Positions 10,753-32,610 of a DNA stretch of 64,000 nt are shown here, in pieces. The number at the start of each line of letters is the position of its first letter. Positions within the stretch are counted from its first letter, which is position 1. Source of the stretch: a virus; the IMG/VR virus record IMGVR_UViG_3300017766_003354, positions 32,001 through 96,000 of that record. One strand, written 5' to 3'. The position numbers were made by a program, and so were the translations under genes. The notes under the pieces were generated by a model, which searched no databases, was not told the origin of the DNA, and saw only the letters and a program-made list of their open reading frames with translations.

Positions 10753-11023
10753 TTTGCTGGATTATTTTCTCGGCACTCAGGGAAAAGAAATTTGGGAAGT
10801 CCGAACGGAAATCAAAGACTGGTTTTCGGACAACTATATTTGGGAGGGAGACGTTCGAGTTTGCGAACTGACGAATTACCCATATTCTAATTTTTCAGAA
10901 AAAAGCGATGCTATTTGCGCTTTTTGTGAATCGTGTCTTGAGGAATTCGGGATGTCTGATTACGAAATCAAGCCACTTGAGCCTTGTGGTGGATGGAAGT
11001 TTTTAAAAATCGTAGTAAACTAA
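10721..11023 (+). CDS. hypothetical protein
   Basis: ORF in operon. Confidence 0.6.
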   Translation: MKPQKLYSLTDLLDYFLGTQGKEIWEVRTEIKDWFSDNYIWEGDVRVCELTNYPYSNFSEKSDAICAFCESCLEEFGMSDYEIKPLEPCGGWKFLKIVVN

Positions 11024-11024
11024 T

Positions 11025-11225
11025 ATGACAAACAAACAAAAATTTATACTGACCAACGACGAAGACGGCCATTGGTATATTATCCCCGAATCTAAAAAGG
11101 ATGAATTCGACAACTGGCTGGACCTCGTTTATTCTGAAGAGGCCGATTGCGGAGATATGCCAGAATGGGCAAAATGCATTGACGGCCCGCACTCTATTAT
11201 CATTCATGAATATTCTGAAGTGTAA
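11025..11225 (+). CDS. hypothetical protein
   Basis: DEDGHWYIIP; small acidic ORF. Confidence 0.65.
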   Translation: MTNKQKFILTNDEDGHWYIIPESKKDEFDNWLDLVYSEEADCGDMPEWAKCIDGPHSIIIHEYSEV

Positions 11226-11234
11226 AAGCTTCTA

Positions 11235-11333
11235 GTGGATGATTTTAATTCAGACAGGCCAGACTACTCAAAAACCGACAAAATTATAATCTCTATTCTT
11301 GGCGCGGTGTTCTTTTTTTTCATTTTAGCTTGA
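11235..11333 (+). CDS. small membrane peptide
   Basis: GTG start 9 nt after GTGTAA; C-terminal hydrophobic IIISILGAVFFFFILA. Confidence 0.4.
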   Translation: MDDFNSDRPDYSKTDKIIISILGAVFFFFILA

Positions 11334-18395: not shown

Positions 18396-18968
18396 ATGAA
18401 CGCAGTAACCGCAAACACAAAAACAACTTTGCTTCTTAATAATGCTTGGCAGCCAATTACGGTTGTCACGGCACGGGCGGCATTTCAGCATTTGCACAAG
18501 AGAAGAATCTCTGCATTGGATAAAGACAGCAATATCTTTCATTCTTTGGACTCTTGGAATACTTTGGGGGTTTATTACGATGATCAGCCGTTTCTAAGAA
18601 GTGCTCATGCTGCTTGGCCGATTCCTACTGTAATCGTAGTAAATAGTAAATTCTTCAGAAAGCCGAAAAAGAGCAAACTAACTCTTTTTGATCTAGCGAA
18701 ACTGTGCGATTATACTTGCCAGTATTGCTTTGAAAAGTTTCCGATCAAGCAATTAAGTATTGACCACGTAAACCCTCGATCACGCGGAGGCGAAGACACT
18801 CATGATAACCGCGTGCTATCGTGTGTGCGCTGTAATCGCGCAAAAAGTAATTTTACTCCATGGCTAGATAAAAACGGCAAAATTCCAACCCCACCGTCGA
18901 TCCCCGCGTTGATGTTGAATGCGGAAAAAATTCGTCCCGAATGGAATAGTTTTGTGAATAATCATTAA
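18396..18968 (+). CDS. HNH endonuclease (McrA-like)
   Basis: TLLLNNAWQPI, CQYC, SIDHVNPRSRGG, N.V.SC..CN..K. Confidence 0.9.
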   Translation: MNAVTANTKTTLLLNNAWQPITVVTARAAFQHLHKRRISALDKDSNIFHSLDSWNTLGVYYDDQPFLRSAHAAWPIPTVIVVNSKFFRKPKKSKLTLFDLAKLCDYTCQYCFEKFPIKQLSIDHVNPRSRGGEDTHDNRVLSCVRCNRAKSNFTPWLDKNGKIPTPPSIPALMLNAEKIRPEWNSFVNNH

Positions 18969-21152: not shown

Positions 21153-21237
21153 GGGCGTGTGAGAGAATGGTTATCTAGCGGTCTTTTAAACCGAGGGCGA
21201 AAGCCCAACGTGGGTTCAATCCCCACCGCGCCTACCA
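21153..21237 (+). tRNA. tRNA-Lys(TTT) with long variable arm
   Basis: cggt-ctTTTaa-accg; gggc-gaaa-gccc; CCA. Confidence 0.85.
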
Positions 21238-21243
21238 ATTTTA

Positions 21244-21330
21244 GCAAGTGTGACAGAATGATCATGTATCCGTCTCTTAAACGGCAGAGAGAAATCTCTA
21301 ATGTGGGTTTGAATCCCACCGCTTGCACCA
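21244..21330 (+). tRNA. tRNA-Lys(CTT) with long variable arm
   Basis: ccgt-ctCTTaa-acgg; agaga-gaaa-tctct; CCA. Confidence 0.85.
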
Positions 21331-21341
21331 AAATTTTTCAT

Positions 21342-21431
21342 AGTATAGTGGCGGAATTGGAAGACGCGCTCGCCTGTTAAGTGAGAGTTCCGAAAGGACA
21401 CCTGTAGGATCGTGGCCTACCTATACTGCCA
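21342..21431 (+). tRNA. tRNA-Asn(GTT) with long variable arm and Leu-like D arm
   Basis: ctcgc-ctGTTaa-gtgag; tcc-gaaa-gga; G73; CCA. Confidence 0.85.
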
Positions 21432-21635: not shown

Positions 21636-22133
21636 TCATTTGCGTTTACCTGAAAACGTCAAAGTTTGCGAATGACAATTTGGACAAAGAAACCTTAAAT
21701 TACTCAAGCGATTATCATTATTAATTCCATTGATGTGATCTAATTGTAGAGAAAGCGGTTTATTATTGTAGGTTCCTTGATTGCCGCATTCAGCGCATTC
21801 ATACTTCCAACCAAAATCTTGTAATAAACGACTTTTTATATTGTTGCCACTAACATAAGAAGAGTTTTCCACAAAAATATCTTCATTGTCTCGCTTGTTA
21901 ATTGGGCTTAACTTCTTTGCTTGTTCTTGTTTAAAGTTCTTCTTGTTGGCAGTAAAAAGAGTTAAGTCAAAATTTTCTTCCTTGATTCGTTTTTTAATTG
22001 TCCTGTGGTTTCCATTATAACCACCAAAACCTAATTTCTTTAAAATTTCGACAATAGACGAGCTTTCATTTAATAACCTTTGAAAATCATCGAAACTCGT
22101 TGTCCACACTATACTTTTTCTCGTAATCTTCAT
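21636..22133 (-). CDS. HNH homing-type endonuclease inserted in tRNA array
   Basis: CAECG...LQLDHINGINNDNRLSNLRFLCPNCHSQT; start MKITRK 8 nt after GTGTAA. Confidence 0.9.
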   Translation of the reverse strand: MKITRKSIVWTTSFDDFQRLLNESSSIVEILKKLGFGGYNGNHRTIKKRIKEENFDLTLFTANKKNFKQEQAKKLSPINKRDNEDIFVENSSYVSGNNIKSRLLQDFGWKYECAECGNQGTYNNKPLSLQLDHINGINNDNRLSNLRFLCPNCHSQTLTFSGKRK

Positions 22134-22174
22134 GTGGTATATTACACATAAAGACACAATACGGGACTTTTCAT

Positions 22175-22250
22175 GCGTCATTCGCCTAATGGTATGGCAC
22201 TTCGCTTCCAACGAAGAACAGCATCAGTTCGATTCTGATATGGCGCACCA
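22175..22250 (+). tRNA. tRNA-Gly(TCC)
   Basis: cttcg-ctTCCaa-cgaag; A73; CCA. Confidence 0.88.
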
Positions 22251-23252: not shown

Positions 23253-23332
23253 GCAGCAGTATTCCCTCTCCCTACGAAGGAGGTGAAAGGATAATTGGAT
23301 ACATGTAGGTTCGATGCCTATCTGCTGCACCA
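23253..23332 (+). tRNA. tRNA-Arg(ACG)-like with displaced D arm
   Basis: gcagcag/ctgctgc-A-CCA; ctcc-ctACGaa-ggag; no D arm 5' of anticodon. Confidence 0.7.
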
Positions 23333-23498: not shown

Positions 23499-23592
23499 GG
23501 GTCATGGGGCTGCTTGGGGTGGCCATCTCACTTGCAATGAGAAGACATATCGAAAGATATACAGTTGGGTTCAAATCCCAAATGATCCACCA
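23499..23592 (+). tRNA. tRNA-Ala(TGC) with long variable arm
   Basis: G3:U70; tctca-ctTGCaa-tgaga; atatc-gaaa-gatat; CCA. Confidence 0.85.
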
Positions 23593-24042: not shown

Positions 24043-24116
24043 GGGGGATTGATGTAATGGTAGCCTGACTGATTTACATTCAGTTTGCGGGGATTCGACT
24101 TCCTCATCCCCTACCA
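24043..24116 (+). tRNA. tRNA-Val(TAC)
   Basis: actga-ttTACat-tcagt; CCA. Confidence 0.88.
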
Positions 24117-24124
24117 ATTTTTAT

Positions 24125-24209
24125 GGTAACGAAGCCGAAGTGGTTTCAGGCGCTACCCTGTCAAGGTAGGAACGAAAGTTCATAGCGAGTTCGATCCTCG
24201 TCGTTACCG
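24125..24209 (+). tRNA. tRNA-Asp(GTC) with long variable arm
   Basis: ctacc-ctGTCaa-ggtag; gaac-gaaa-gttc; G73; ends CCC. Confidence 0.82.
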
Positions 24210-24219
24210 CCCTTTTCAT

Positions 24220-24297
24220 GCATCAGTATGCTATTGGTATCGCAGCAACGTCGAGAGCGTTGTGTTTTTGTCGGTTCGACTCCGATCTGATGCACCA
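24220..24297 (+). tRNA. tRNA-Leu(GAG)-like, short V region, C33
   Basis: caacg-tcGAGag-cgttg; CCA. Confidence 0.65.
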
Positions 24298-24306
24298 AAT
24301 TTTTAT

Positions 24307-24391
24307 CGGCGCGTGGGTTAATCGAGAACGGCAGATCACAGATACTTAGAATATCTGACCCTTGGAGGTTCAATTCCTCTCGCGCCGACCA
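24307..24391 (+). tRNA. tRNA-Leu(TAG), non-canonical fold
   Basis: agata-ctTAGaa-tatct; no V hairpin; CCA. Confidence 0.8.
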
Positions 24392-24398
24392 TTTTTTA

Positions 24399-24480
24399 CG
24401 GCATGTGGGTTAATCGGGAATAGCAGACTACACTTACTCAAAATAAGTGACCCTTGAAGGTGCAAGTCCTTTCATGCCGA
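24399..24480 (+). tRNA. tRNA-Leu(CAA), non-canonical fold
   Basis: actta-ctCAAaa-taagt; no V hairpin; no encoded CCA. Confidence 0.78.
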
Positions 24481-24491
24481 CTTTTTTTAAT

Positions 24492-24577
24492 GGTATAGTG
24501 GATAAGCGAAATTGGCGACAAGCGAAAGATTTAAAATCTTTTATCCTCTGTGGGTTCGAATCCCACCTATACTACCA
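24492..24577 (+). tRNA. tRNA-Leu(TAA), non-canonical fold
   Basis: aaaga-ttTAAaa-tcttt; no V hairpin; CCA. Confidence 0.8.
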
Positions 24578-24583
24578 ATTCAT

Positions 24584-24669
24584 GGATCGTAAATCAACAA
24601 GGCGTTGACTCTTCCTGCTAAGAAGGTGGAGGTTTAAAAAACCTTTCAGTTCAAATCTGATGCGATCCT
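24584..24669 (+). tRNA. tRNA-Ser(GCT)
   Basis: cttc-ctGCTaa-gaag; V arm; no encoded CCA. Confidence 0.78.
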
Positions 24670-24706: not shown

Positions 24707-25117
24707 GTGACTGTAAATGATAAAGGAAATATTGGGTTGACTAAAGTAATGTCTGATTTAACTGAAAAGGGTTATTCGGTTTTTTTACCGATAGCAGATA
24801 CTAGTTGCGTAGATTTAATTGCGGCTGACGAAGGAATGAATATAAAAAAGATACAAATTAAATATCGCAAAGTTAATAAATTCGGAGTGATTTGTGTTCA
24901 AACTCGCTCTGTTGTCAACGGAAAAAGTATCCCCATTCCTTTAGAACAAATTGATCTTTGGGCTATCTATTGCCCCGATACAAAGCAAATTTATTATTTA
25001 TCTTCTGATATTTTGAAAGGAAAGTCTGTTCTTTCTTTGCGGGTAGATAAAGAAGTAAGAAAATGCGAACAAACAACTTTCGCAGACCAATTCACCGATA
25101 TTAAGAAAGTTTGGTGA
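24707..25117 (+). CDS. PD-(D/E)XK homing-type endonuclease
   Basis: KGNIG...GY.VF.P..D...DLI...KKIQIKYR...ID.WAIYCPDT. Confidence 0.82.
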   Translation: MTVNDKGNIGLTKVMSDLTEKGYSVFLPIADTSCVDLIAADEGMNIKKIQIKYRKVNKFGVICVQTRSVVNGKSIPIPLEQIDLWAIYCPDTKQIYYLSSDILKGKSVLSLRVDKEVRKCEQTTFADQFTDIKKVW

Positions 25118-25517: not shown

Positions 25518-26723
25518 ATGCAAGTAATAAAAAACATCCCTGTCTGGGGAGAAGTTCAAGAAAATGCGGTTGATCAAATGGCTAACGCTCTTAATTGTGG
25601 AGCTTATAAGGCTGCTTTGATGGGGGATCATCATTTGGGCTATTCTGTTCCTGTAGGGGGAGTTATCGCTTATAAGAATGCTATTTCTCCTTCTGGTGTT
25701 GGATTTGATATTGCTTGCGGCAATAAAGCAGTTCTTACTGATGCTTTTCTTCCTGACGTTCTTCCATTTATTGAAAAAATAATGGATGATGTTTTTCGCA
25801 ACATTTCTTTCGGAATTGGAAGAGTTTCAAACTCAAAACATATTGTTGGTCAAAAAGACCCAAGTGATCACCCCTTGTTTAATGACGAAGCTTGGAATAT
25901 TCCTGCAATTTCTGGATACAAAGACTTGGCCCGAAATCAACTAGGAACAGTTGGTTCTGGCAATCACTATGTTGATATATTTGCCGATAATTTTGGTCGT
26001 ATTTGGATTGGAGTCCACTTTGGTTCTCGCGGATTAGGACACAAAACAGCTTCTCATTACATTAAAGAAGGCGGTGGAACAGACGGAATGTTTGTTAATC
26101 CTGTTGTTCTTGATGCTGATTCAGAATTGGGTAAAGAATATATTGCTGCAATGAATCTTGCTGGACGATATGCCTATGCTGGTCGTGATTGGGTTTGCGA
26201 AGAAGTCGCTCGTATCTTGGGGGCTAATATTTTAGACTCTGTTCATAATCATCATAACTTCGCTTGGCTCGAAAACCATGAAGGAGAAGATCTGTGGGTA
26301 GTCCGCAAAGGAGCAACTCCAGCTTTCCCAAATCAAAAAGGATTCGTTGGAGGAACGATGGGCGAAAATTCTGTAATCTTAGAAGGAATTAATCATCTAG
26401 AATGCAAAACTTCTTTATATTCTACTGTCCACGGAGCAGGTCGCGTTATGTCACGAACTGAAGCTGCGGGCAAATCAAAATGGAAACAAGGAAAGAAAAC
26501 CCGTATTTCTGAAGGCAAAGTTTCTCAAGAAATGATGAATGATTGGATTTCTAAAAAGGGAGTCTGCCTTCGTGGCGCGGGGGTTGATGAATCTCCTCAT
26601 TGCTATAAAAGACTTGACGAAGTTCTTGAAGCCCACACAAATACAATTAAAATCTTACATAGTCTGACTCCTATCGGTGTCGCAATGGCAGGAAATGAAG
26701 TTTTCGACCCATATAAAGATTAG
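25518..26723 (+). CDS. rtcB: RtcB RNA 3'-phosphate/5'-OH ligase
   Basis: MGDHHLGY, GVGFDIACG, LGTVGSGNHY, VHFGSRGLG, HNHHNFAW, RKGATPA, HGAGRVMSR, DESP..YK. Confidence 0.95.
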   Translation: MQVIKNIPVWGEVQENAVDQMANALNCGAYKAALMGDHHLGYSVPVGGVIAYKNAISPSGVGFDIACGNKAVLTDAFLPDVLPFIEKIMDDVFRNISFGIGRVSNSKHIVGQKDPSDHPLFNDEAWNIPAISGYKDLARNQLGTVGSGNHYVDIFADNFGRIWIGVHFGSRGLGHKTASHYIKEGGGTDGMFVNPVVLDADSELGKEYIAAMNLAGRYAYAGRDWVCEEVARILGANILDSVHNHHNFAWLENHEGEDLWVVRKGATPAFPNQKGFVGGTMGENSVILEGINHLECKTSLYSTVHGAGRVMSRTEAAGKSKWKQGKKTRISEGKVSQEMMNDWISKKGVCLRGAGVDESPHCYKRLDEVLEAHTNTIKILHSLTPIGVAMAGNEVFDPYKD

Positions 26724-30819: not shown

Positions 30820-32610
30820 TTAGTATTTCAGCCATTGAGTCGCTCCGTTCGATGTAACGGTTATACTTTGATATTGTCCAGTAAGATCCACGCTTGAAAC
30901 TCCCTCAATGTTGTCTCCTGCTTGCGCAGAAAGTCTAATAATATCCGCTGTCGCATCGGTTTTTTTGAGTTTGTATGTCTTCCCCGCTGCGCTAGCAGCC
31001 AATGGTAAAACAAAATTAATTGTTCCTGCTCCTCCTATCCCATATAAAGCCGAGTCAGTCAATTTTATTGTATAAGTGCCAGATACAGCGGCTTGTATTT
31101 TTGGGTAATAATCAAAGCTTTGGCTTCGAATAGTTTCATCTTCTACTAGAACTATTCCGAGTTGATAAATATCGACAGTCCCATGACCCAAAAAATTACA
31201 CCATATCTCCATCGTAGATCCGTTTGCAGCGTTAGAGGTAGTTATAATCGGAGTCGTAAGTGTTCCCTCAAAACTTGTCAAATCTAAAGAGTTTTCTGCG
31301 GGGAATCCCGAATTTTGGGACGTTTGTGCTATAGTCCCAAGATTCGCGATTACATAAAAACTAATATTGGAAAATCCAGACCCTTTAATTCTAGCTACAA
31401 CTCTATATTTTCGTCCAGAAATAATTCCTTGTGTAGCTAACGGAACTTTAAGGCCAAATGCCCCGAAACGGTCACTGCCAGTTACGACTATTCTTTGCGC
31501 AATTTGGTTATTAGCATCTACAATTTTTGAATAAACAGCGGTATTACCTGCTGCGTTCGCCGCTGCTGTCCAACTTGTAGGAATGTTCCCACTATATCCA
31601 GAACCACTAACCGCAGAACTTCCTGTGCAATAAGGGTTGGCTGTGATCCAAGCCGCATCACTAGGCATCGGAATTGGAATAGAAGATTTAGAAATTAAAT
31701 CGTCAATCTCTACGGCGACCGCTTCTCCCAATGTTTTTGCCCCGAGGGTATTTGGATGAAGCCCATCTCTAAAATATCCAGTTGTGGGGACTCCCGCCGT
31801 CTTCAAAATTGCTGGATATGGAATCCACTTAATGCCCAGAGCCGCAGCGTCAGCTTCATTAATCGCATTTACGTTGTCTGCTTGTGTTGTTTGTAGCCCA
31901 GCATCGAATGCAGTAAATCTTGGCAAGATGGCTACAGCAACAAGCTTCGAAGGGTGTATCCCTCCCGCAATCAACTCTTCCCACAATGCTCTTCGTCGGG
32001 CCGCAATCGGGGCAGCAGGGACAAATGGATCGGCAATATCATTAGCCCCCGATAACTCTACGATTAAGACATCCTTTCCTGCCGAACGAGAAAGCAGTTG
32101 GGCCAACGGGCCGTTTGAACGCTGAACCACGTATCCTATTCTAGCTGTCGTATTAGTATAATCAACAGTCGTTCCATCGGCAGTCAAAACCCCCCGTATA
32201 TCATTAATCTTATATCCAGAATACCCAAAAGTTTGATCTGAAAATGTTGAGCTTTTTTGCAAGAACTCAAATCTAGCATTTAAAGCAAATCTCACCCATG
32301 TTGGATAACCGTTTCCGACAAAACTCGCTGATTGCACTCCCGCAGCAGAAGTCGTGGCGCTTGAAGCAGCAGCGGTAATAGAGTCTCCTAAAAAAGCGAC
32401 AATAGAAGTTTTTGTTATTCCAAGAGCATCTTGGCTAGCCGCTTCGTCTTCGGCAAGAGCTAAATTAATAGAATCATTATCTGTGCTAATCACTTTTGCA
32501 TCCGCCCCACTTTCACCAGCTTCAATAGCATAAAATAAATCATTATCAGAAGCCTTTAATAGCCTTGAATTAGCTTGAACAGGAAGAGCGAGAATTTGTG
32601 TCGAGGTCAT
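30820..32610 (-). CDS. virion/tail-associated SGNH esterase with CBM-like domain
   Basis: FLGDSIT, G.SG, SGAND, DGLHPN..G; tail-like C-terminus. Confidence 0.8.
   Translation of the reverse strand: MTSTQILALPVQANSRLLKASDNDLFYAIEAGESGADAKVISTDNDSINLALAEDEAASQDALGITKTSIVAFLGDSITAAASSATTSAAGVQSASFVGNGYPTWVRFALNARFEFLQKSSTFSDQTFGYSGYKINDIRGVLTADGTTVDYTNTTARIGYVVQRSNGPLAQLLSRSAGKDVLIVELSGANDIADPFVPAAPIAARRRALWEELIAGGIHPSKLVAVAILPRFTAFDAGLQTTQADNVNAINEADAAALGIKWIPYPAILKTAGVPTTGYFRDGLHPNTLGAKTLGEAVAVEIDDLISKSSIPIPMPSDAAWITANPYCTGSSAVSGSGYSGNIPTSWTAAANAAGNTAVYSKIVDANNQIAQRIVVTGSDRFGAFGLKVPLATQGIISGRKYRVVARIKGSGFSNISFYVIANLGTIAQTSQNSGFPAENSLDLTSFEGTLTTPIITTSNAANGSTMEIWCNFLGHGTVDIYQLGIVLVEDETIRSQSFDYYPKIQAAVSGTYTIKLTDSALYGIGGAGTINFVLPLAASAAGKTYKLKKTDATADIIRLSAQAGDNIEGVSSVDLTGQYQSITVTSNGATQWLKY

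Follow-up and report, generated by a model that had tools for sequence, protein, structure and literature searches.

The locus and its leucine tRNA genes

For bacterial-type tRNAs, the cloverleaf with its one four-way junction is regarded as universal. Whether it also describes three consecutive leucine tRNA genes of an uncultured phage, which have no variable hairpin and carry surplus bases behind the 5' strand of the acceptor stem, is the question raised by the locus analysed here; in a passage of one source (PMC11551756), the cloverleaf is said to be adopted by all known bacterial tRNAs. The window, a stretch of 64,000 nucleotides (positions 32,001 to 96,000 of IMG/VR record IMGVR_UViG_3300017766_003354, a complete virus record of 146.9 kb with terminal repeats), includes a dense tRNA array that spans roughly 19.5-25.5 kb on the plus strand and, after it, a gene for RtcB RNA ligase, which was used as bait for fetching related loci.

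Read from the sequence, tRNA-Leu genes with the anticodons UAG, CAA and UAA (genes A, B and C) stand in tandem at 24307-24577 (Table 1). Each has a perfect acceptor stem of 7 bp, an anticodon stem of 5 bp with a 7-nt loop (U33, A37), a T stem of 5 bp with a 7-nt loop, abutting the 3' strand of the acceptor stem, and the discriminator base A73 together with a leucine anticodon. Genes A and B are 88% identical; where their acceptor, anticodon and T stems differ, the changes compensate each other, as expected for RNA genes selected for structure. Gene B is followed at 24481-24491 by CUUUUUUUAAU in place of the CCA that A and C encode, and a CCA-adding enzyme would thus be required. The fourth leucine isoacceptor, tRNA-Leu(GAG), has a 5' region of normal length (19 nt) and a U-rich variable loop of 7 nt, with neither an insert nor the additional helix described below, and fits the type I (short-loop) tRNA-Leu; its anticodon loop has C33, where U33 is near-universal.

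A fifth helix between the connector and the variable region

The variable regions of A, B and C comprise 7, 7 and 8 nt and show no self-pairing; as the sequence-only reading of this DNA had stated, they contain no hairpin. The stretch from the acceptor stem to the anticodon stem is 26 nt long in all three genes, versus 18-21 nt in about 230 ordinary tRNAs of the related loci: five or six surplus bases follow U8, giving a connector of 7-8 nt instead of the usual two bases (8 and 9), and the insert has no complementarity to itself. Nucleotides 9-13 complement the first five variable bases, so that the pairing partners named in the earlier reading (GGGUU with GACCC in two genes, GGAUA with UAUCC in the third) were found again as a gap-free helix of 5 bp, here called the fifth helix, with four Watson-Crick pairs and one G.U pair in A and B and five Watson-Crick pairs in C. 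The chance of a five-of-five match at a fixed register is about 0.007 per gene. With the three standard stems enforced, the predicted pair probability of the helix is about 0.8 in each of the three genes; in gene B, pairs one to four have values of 0.78-0.87. By nearest-neighbour energies the helix is favoured only in A, B and C, not in five relatives (G035, G005, L197, L233 and L319). None of the three genes fits a cloverleaf with a two-base connector and a single four-way junction.

Table 1. Features of the leucine tRNA genes and of associated genes (positions in the window)
Feature	Position	Strand	Remarks
tRNA-Arg(ACG), rewired	23253-23329		7 nt only between acceptor and anticodon stems
tRNA-Leu(GAG), fourth Leu isoacceptor	24220-24297	+	ARAGORN; Rfam 36.5 bits
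Gene A, tRNA-Leu(UAG)	24307-24388, CCA to 24391	+	82 nt plus encoded CCA; fifth-helix type
Gene A, fifth helix, 5' strand GGGUU (nt 9-13)	24315-24319	+	complements 24357-24361
Gene A, anticodon UAG	24347-24349	+	from sequence
Gene A, fifth helix, 3' strand GACCC	24357-24361	+	adjoins anticodon stem; followed by UU and T stem
Gene A, 18-55 sites compared	24330-24331 and 24369-24371	+	from sequence
Gene B, tRNA-Leu(CAA)	24399-24480	+	82 nt, CCA not encoded; fifth-helix type
Gene B, fifth helix, 5' strand GGGUU	24407-24411	+	complements 24449-24453
Gene B, anticodon CAA	24439-24441	+	from sequence
Gene B, fifth helix, 3' strand GACCC	24449-24453	+	from sequence
Gene B, 18-55 sites compared	24422-24423 and 24461-24463	+	from sequence
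Gene C, tRNA-Leu(UAA)	24492-24574, CCA to 24577	+	83 nt plus encoded CCA; fifth-helix type
Gene C, fifth helix, 5' strand GGAUA	24500-24504	+	complements 24542-24546
Gene C, anticodon UAA	24532-24534	+	from sequence
Gene C, fifth helix, 3' strand UAUCC	24542-24546	+	followed by UCU and T stem
RtcB RNA ligase gene	25518-26723	+	Pfam PF01139, E 3.5e-64; directly after tRNA array

Relatives in other phages

The class is defined here by a leucine anticodon, A73, a 5' region of 24-28 nt starting with UG, a variable region of 6-8 nt, and a helix of at least 3 bp linking nt 9 onward with the beginning of the variable region, all of which are features of A, B and C. The first relatives came from RtcB-linked loci and from whole-record searches with a covariance model lacking the helix, and further ones from scans with T-arm patterns followed by a structural parser; these patterns specified some bases of the variable strand in advance (CCYTT or TTT). 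At least 25 distinct genes of this build, on at least 17 viral contigs, were found among the matches listed, and all 25 that were collected have a leucine anticodon, A73, a 5' region of 24-28 nt and a variable region of 6-8 nt. In 19 of the 25, the helix has 3-5 bp without gaps and is bounded by nt 9 and the first variable base, and in the other six it has 3-4 bp from nt 9 and starts 1-2 nt past the anticodon stem. Its strands come in 13 different versions, all of them complementary (GGCU/AGCU, GGGA/UCCU, GGGC/GCCU, GGCC/GGCU, GACC/GGUU and GGAUA/UAUCC are examples), three members having GGG/CCU alone. The tRNA-Leu(UAA) of G035 has GGACG/UGUCC, which with respect to gene C represents a compensating change of U-A to C-G, and the tRNA-Leu(CAA) of L399 has a helix identical to that of gene C; the second gene obtained with the helix-free covariance model, in G005, is a tRNA-Leu(CAG). 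Two or three isoacceptors of this build are present in each of L402, L439, L399 and L319. The build with the expanded connector was seen with leucine anticodons only, in about 1,350 tRNA candidates with perfect acceptor stems from all fetched loci.

Members were not detected in the RtcB neighbourhoods of metagenome contigs, and two were detected, through whole-record searches, in those of viral contigs. DNA polymerase III alpha, used as a marker for relatives of the phage, led to one distant locus and is absent from G035 and G005; phages with this type of tRNA are therefore not closely related overall. The array had no megablast match among GenBank phages, and its blastn matches among cultured phages were partial hits to ordinary short tRNA-Leu genes only (T5-like, Vibrio and Acinetobacter phages); a search with a D-loop word returned two chance matches, both outside tRNA genes. 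The related phage contig L169 (G035; 132 kb) also encodes a tmRNA at 10843-11243 (Rfam, 79.9 bits), close to its tRNA array.

Covariation of the helix

Gene C and the canonical genes of equal length were mis-registered by MAFFT, and model-based alignments and alignment-free counts were used instead. In alignment A11 (28 rows, model-based and, like A9, fitted to a helix-containing model), 85.6% of the cells of the fifth helix pair, versus 67.0 +/- 2.8% in shuffles, a background that is high because one strand is G-rich and the other C/U-rich. The cells with double changes number 28, versus 10.9 +/- 2.9 in shuffles; neither value was reached in any of 500 shuffles, counts that are not to be read as probabilities because the sequences are related. 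The third pair is G-C in 11 rows, C-G in seven and A-U in four, and the fourth is C-G in nine, U-A in nine and A-U in one, while the fifth is poorly conserved (11 of 25 cells unpaired). Pairing in the three standard stems of the family alignment amounts to 99.5% of cells (acceptor), 98.4% (anticodon) and 99.3% (T). Covariation across phage homologs, which the earlier reading had named as a check, was found on this alignment, and the comparative evidence gives good support to a non-cloverleaf helix between connector and variable region.

That the complementarity arose by chance or as a by-product of base composition is very hard to credit. Composition-keeping shuffles of single genes, with pairing allowed in any register, do return weak p-values (0.03-0.9), but 13 different complementary strand pairs occupy the same place, the cognate pairs outscore all 1854 of 1854 non-cognate re-pairings (seven lineages), and the 500 shuffles fall short of the observed covariation.

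A different proposal is that A and B are ordinary cloverleafs: nucleotides G10-U13 would form a 4-bp D stem with GAUC or GACU, the D loop would be oversized at 14 nt, the variable loop would have 7 nt, and the complementarity to the variable strand would be an unused relic of the former GGG:CCC variable stem. Rfam aligns both genes in this way; the RNAfold minimum of gene A uses this GGUU/GAUC stem and is slightly more stable than the fold with the fifth helix (-25.4 versus -23.8 kcal/mol); the 3' strand of the stem varies among A, B and L197 by pairing-keeping transitions only (GAUC, GACU, AGCU); and A14, A15 and A21 would lie at their canonical places. The stem is impossible in gene C and in G035, however, and it would leave L197 without a base 9 and require D loops of 14-15 nt that contain a recognisable normal Leu-type D arm. 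Its positions pair in 41.7% of cells (nine sequences) or 38.1% (28 sequences, versus 39.9% in shuffles), which is background, with no excess covariation. The ordinary cloverleaf is therefore improbable for A and B, and the non-cloverleaf fold put forward by the sequence-only reading is supported: its helix covaries over 25 phage tRNA-Leu genes, and the D stem of the cloverleaf alternative does not.

Elbow and D arm

The D loop and T loop vary in concert. Genes A and C combine GG in the D loop with UUC in the T loop, and gene B combines AG with UGC; across the D regions and T loops of the 25 members, the same exchange of G18-U55 for A18-G55 is found in all three with a UGC T loop (gene B, G035 and G005). 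Covariation of positions 18 and 55 is also seen in L169, L171 and L179, and among all fetched phage tRNA candidates there are 305 with U55/GG and 40 with G55/AG, versus 12 with G55/GG, many of which are false parses. Because positions 18 and 55 covary, the elbow appears to be preserved: the D loop probably still docks on the T loop, and an L shape with a normal elbow would be kept. The inner D stem is weak, with two or three pairs.

Probable origin from a class II variable arm

A search of bacterial genomes with a word spanning the variable region and T arm of gene A returned only canonical class II tRNA-Leu genes of 82 nt (in Methylotetracoccus, Omnitrophota, Verrucomicrobiae and others), in which a variable arm of the form U-GGG-GNGA-CCC-UU precedes the same T arm. 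The phage genes share with them the leucine anticodons, A73 and overall length, a T arm that is near-identical to that of gene A, a Leu-type D loop and, from the variable arm, GACCCUU as its 3' half. Since U-GGG-GNGA-CCC-UU is found in bacterial tRNA-Leu of equal length, GACCCUU in A and B looks like the end of the loop and the retained 3' strand of the old variable stem. Its GGG partner would now lie behind U8, and the old variable stem, differently connected, probably persists as the fifth helix.

The phage genes differ from class II tRNA-Leu in having no variable arm of at least 10 nt with a hairpin. The G-rich strand follows the anticodon stem in class II tRNA-Leu and U8 in the phage tRNAs, and the helix encloses the D and anticodon arms, whereas the class II variable stem caps a loop. 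At a length equal to that of the bacterial 82-nt genes, the D and anticodon arms are located about 6 nt further 3'. Class II tRNA-Leu is likely to be the ancestor of the phage fifth-helix tRNA-Leu. The earlier suggestion of a rebuilding from two distant strands has some backing in the arm found in the equal-length bacterial genes; its second part, that the helix rebuilds the shape recognised by LeuRS, is not supported, as discussed below.

Proposed fold

In the proposed fold, the ordinary variable hairpin would have been lost and the D and anticodon arms shifted about 6 nt in the 3' direction with the length of the tRNA body unchanged, and four or five of the surplus bases after U8 would pair with the short strand between the anticodon and T stems. 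Strands 8-9 and 44-48, the connectors of the cloverleaf core, would thereby be zipped into a fifth helix, and the four-way junction would be resolved into two three-way junctions, one of acceptor stem, helix and T arm and the other of helix, D arm and anticodon arm. The helix may lie beside the weakened 2-3-bp D stem or replace it, and would bridge the same distance from anticodon stem to elbow as the normal core, so that LeuRS, EF-Tu and the ribosome would still have access to the L shape, the contact of D loop and T loop, and A73. Five pairs stacked on the 5-bp anticodon stem would approximate the length of an anticodon stem, base 26 and D stem, which would allow the distance from anticodon to elbow to be preserved.

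At one end, the helix would be tied to U8 and, across a spacer of two or three U/C nucleotides, to the T stem; at the other, it would be tied to the D arm and, without a spacer, to the anticodon stem. The helix would then run from the acceptor/T junction to the D/anticodon junction, as do the side-by-side connectors 8-9 and 44-48 of normal tRNA. An orientation resembling a protruding variable arm was considered and is ruled out by this connectivity: with both ends tethered to the core, the helix must be located inside it.

Aminoacylation and function

With its ends tied to the core, the helix could hardly restore a protruding arm for LeuRS, and E. coli LeuRS does not need one. Leucine identity in E. 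coli consists of A73 and the D/T elbow, not of the variable arm, and minimal substrates without the arm are charged (PMC9976931). The LeuRS of Streptomyces charges a natural short-loop tRNA-Leu, loop length being of greater importance than loop sequence (PMC6614811). This literature, and the lack of both arm and insert in tRNA-Leu(GAG) of the same array, make it unlikely that LeuRS needs the helix as a handle. Leucylation of A, B and C by LeuRS would be expected from A73, the elbow that they appear to keep, and the same two studies (PMC9976931, PMC6614811). It is more likely that the helix serves to stabilize a class II-type core after the loss of the hairpin than that it serves as a handle; possibly, it allows the tRNA to shed an arm that other proteins grip.

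A, B and C are probably working phage leucine tRNAs of a distinct, Leu-specific architecture that includes the fifth helix. They might instead act outside translation as decoys or regulators, for example as baits for host tRNA-cleaving defence nucleases or as substrates of RtcB; this has only a slight likelihood. Several clearly non-standard tRNA-like RNAs do occur in the array, with RtcB adjoining, ARAGORN rejects the genes, and interactions between phage tRNAs and anticodon nucleases are known (PMC10264068, PMC11464382). Against such a role, the anticodons of A, B, C and tRNA-Leu(GAG) cover all six leucine codons, the genes retain A73, U33, purine 37 and, in A and C, CCA, together with the covariation of positions 18 and 55, and the sets of two or three isoacceptors in four of the related phages are as expected of decoding sets.

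Whether a natural, translation-competent tRNA fold with five helices, specific to leucine in large phages, has arisen by rewiring of a class II variable stem is evenly balanced on present evidence. If it has, then phages explore non-cloverleaf tRNA topologies both in these genes and in the rewired tRNA-Arg of the same array, and a possible reason would be that compatibility with LeuRS and the ribosome is kept while a protruding arm that host tRNA-directed nucleases or non-cognate synthetases could grip is shed. A fifth helix that covaries and is widespread in phage tRNA-Leu would constitute a natural exception to the cloverleaf; it would test how far a rewired core is tolerated by LeuRS, EF-Tu, RNase P, the CCA-adding enzyme and the ribosome, and would offer a ready scaffold for the design of orthogonal tRNAs.

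Comparison with other unusual tRNAs

Type I tRNA-Leu, with a short variable loop, occurs in animal mitochondria. It is also represented by tRNA-Leu(CAA) of Streptomyces coelicolor (PMC6614811) and by many annotated phage tRNA-Leu genes of 74-80 nt (T5-like, Vibrio and Acinetobacter phages). Both type I and the fifth-helix type lack the long variable arm and have leucine anticodons and A73, and both are presumably charged by bacterial LeuRS that does not need the arm. Type I tRNA-Leu has a two-base 8-9 connector and an unpaired variable loop of 5-9 nt, whereas the phage fifth-helix tRNA-Leu has a connector of 7-9 nt paired with the variable strand. A, B and C do not have the unpaired loop of 4-5 nt, or up to about 9 nt, of type I, their first four or five variable bases being paired.

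E-loop tRNAs and allo-tRNAs (PMC5389517, PMC7609411) resemble the phage tRNAs in the position of the insert, in their occurrence in metagenomes and phages, and in being missed by standard finders. Their insert is drawn as a hairpin of its own, with an 8/4 acceptor/T branch and a long variable arm (PMC5389517), and charging by E. coli enzymes was not seen (Mukai et al. 2017, PMC5389517). A, B and C have a 7/5 branch, and neither an 8/4 or 9/3 branch, nor a long variable arm, nor an extra hairpin. In the D-armless mitochondrial tRNA-Ser(AGY) (type III, PMC7609411), too, the connector between acceptor and anticodon stems contacts the variable region and builds the core. This tRNA is organellar and its D arm is wholly absent (PMC7609411), whereas the phage tRNA-Leu keeps a D hairpin with G18G19, and its contact is a regular Watson-Crick helix.

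The nearest parallel in the window is the rewired tRNA-Arg(ACG), in which the 5' linker UAUUC pairs with GGAUA within a variable region of 21 nt to form the sole D-stem-like helix, a D-loop-like AAUUGG following on the 3' side of the helix. Arginine tRNAs of similar build are encoded by L020 (UCU) and L043 (CCU and CCG). These tRNA-Arg genes, like the leucine genes, belong to phage tRNA arrays and have a connector-to-variable helix that encloses the anticodon arm, but the helix of tRNA-Arg replaces the D stem, while a separate D hairpin is retained on the 5' side in the leucine tRNAs. Thus, a connector-variable helix can apparently take the place of the D stem in these phages. No account of a connector-to-variable helix was found in the literature searched. 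The fifth-helix genes make up a new structural variant among tRNA-Leu, three members of which are from this window.

Detection by gene finders and other genes of the array

ARAGORN called no tRNA between 24297 and 25144, so that A, B and C were all missed, and it found none of 22 among the 25 collected members and mis-named the remaining three. Because it misses or mis-names these genes, the tRNA counts and the leucine-decoding capacity of large phages are under-annotated. All three genes passed the gathering cut-off (29 bits) of the Rfam tRNA model RF00005 (A 32.3, B 32.2 and C 32.4 bits), the alignment of gene C having its acceptor stem in the wrong register. The custom model R2 scored A, B and C at 97.3, 96.8 and 48.1 bits, and the model R3, built from nine members, scored A at 88.7 and C at 74.3 bits over the correct ends (range for A to C, 74-89 bits).

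At 24584-24668 there is a tRNA-Ser(GCU)-like gene with an acceptor stem of 8 bp, a T stem of 4 bp and a variable hairpin (fold z-score -2.9), which was called by neither ARAGORN nor Rfam; the 8/4 type has been described for phage tRNA-Ser (PMC5389517). A canonical-looking tRNA-Val(UAC) at 24043-24113 (Rfam, 53.9 bits) is not in the ARAGORN list either. Class I tRNAs with inserted variable hairpins (Lys UUU, Lys CUU, Asn, Ala and Asp GUC) are found at 21153-21431, 23499-23592 and 24125-24209; the three inserts inspected are capped by GAAA, according to the Rfam alignments in both tRNA-Lys and to the sequence in tRNA-Asp, and the tRNA-Asp gene was missed by ARAGORN and scored 43.2 bits with Rfam.

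Small open reading frames for PD-(D/E)XK (PF11645) and HNH endonucleases lie within the tRNA array at 24707-25117, 18396-18968 and 21636-22211, and look like free-standing homing endonucleases. The possibility that the helix is an intron or splicing motif acted on by the PD-(D/E)XK nuclease and RtcB was considered and rejected: with the D and anticodon arms enclosed by the helix, the tRNA would not survive excision, and the PF11645 nuclease, like the HNH proteins of the array, resembles a free-standing homing endonuclease.
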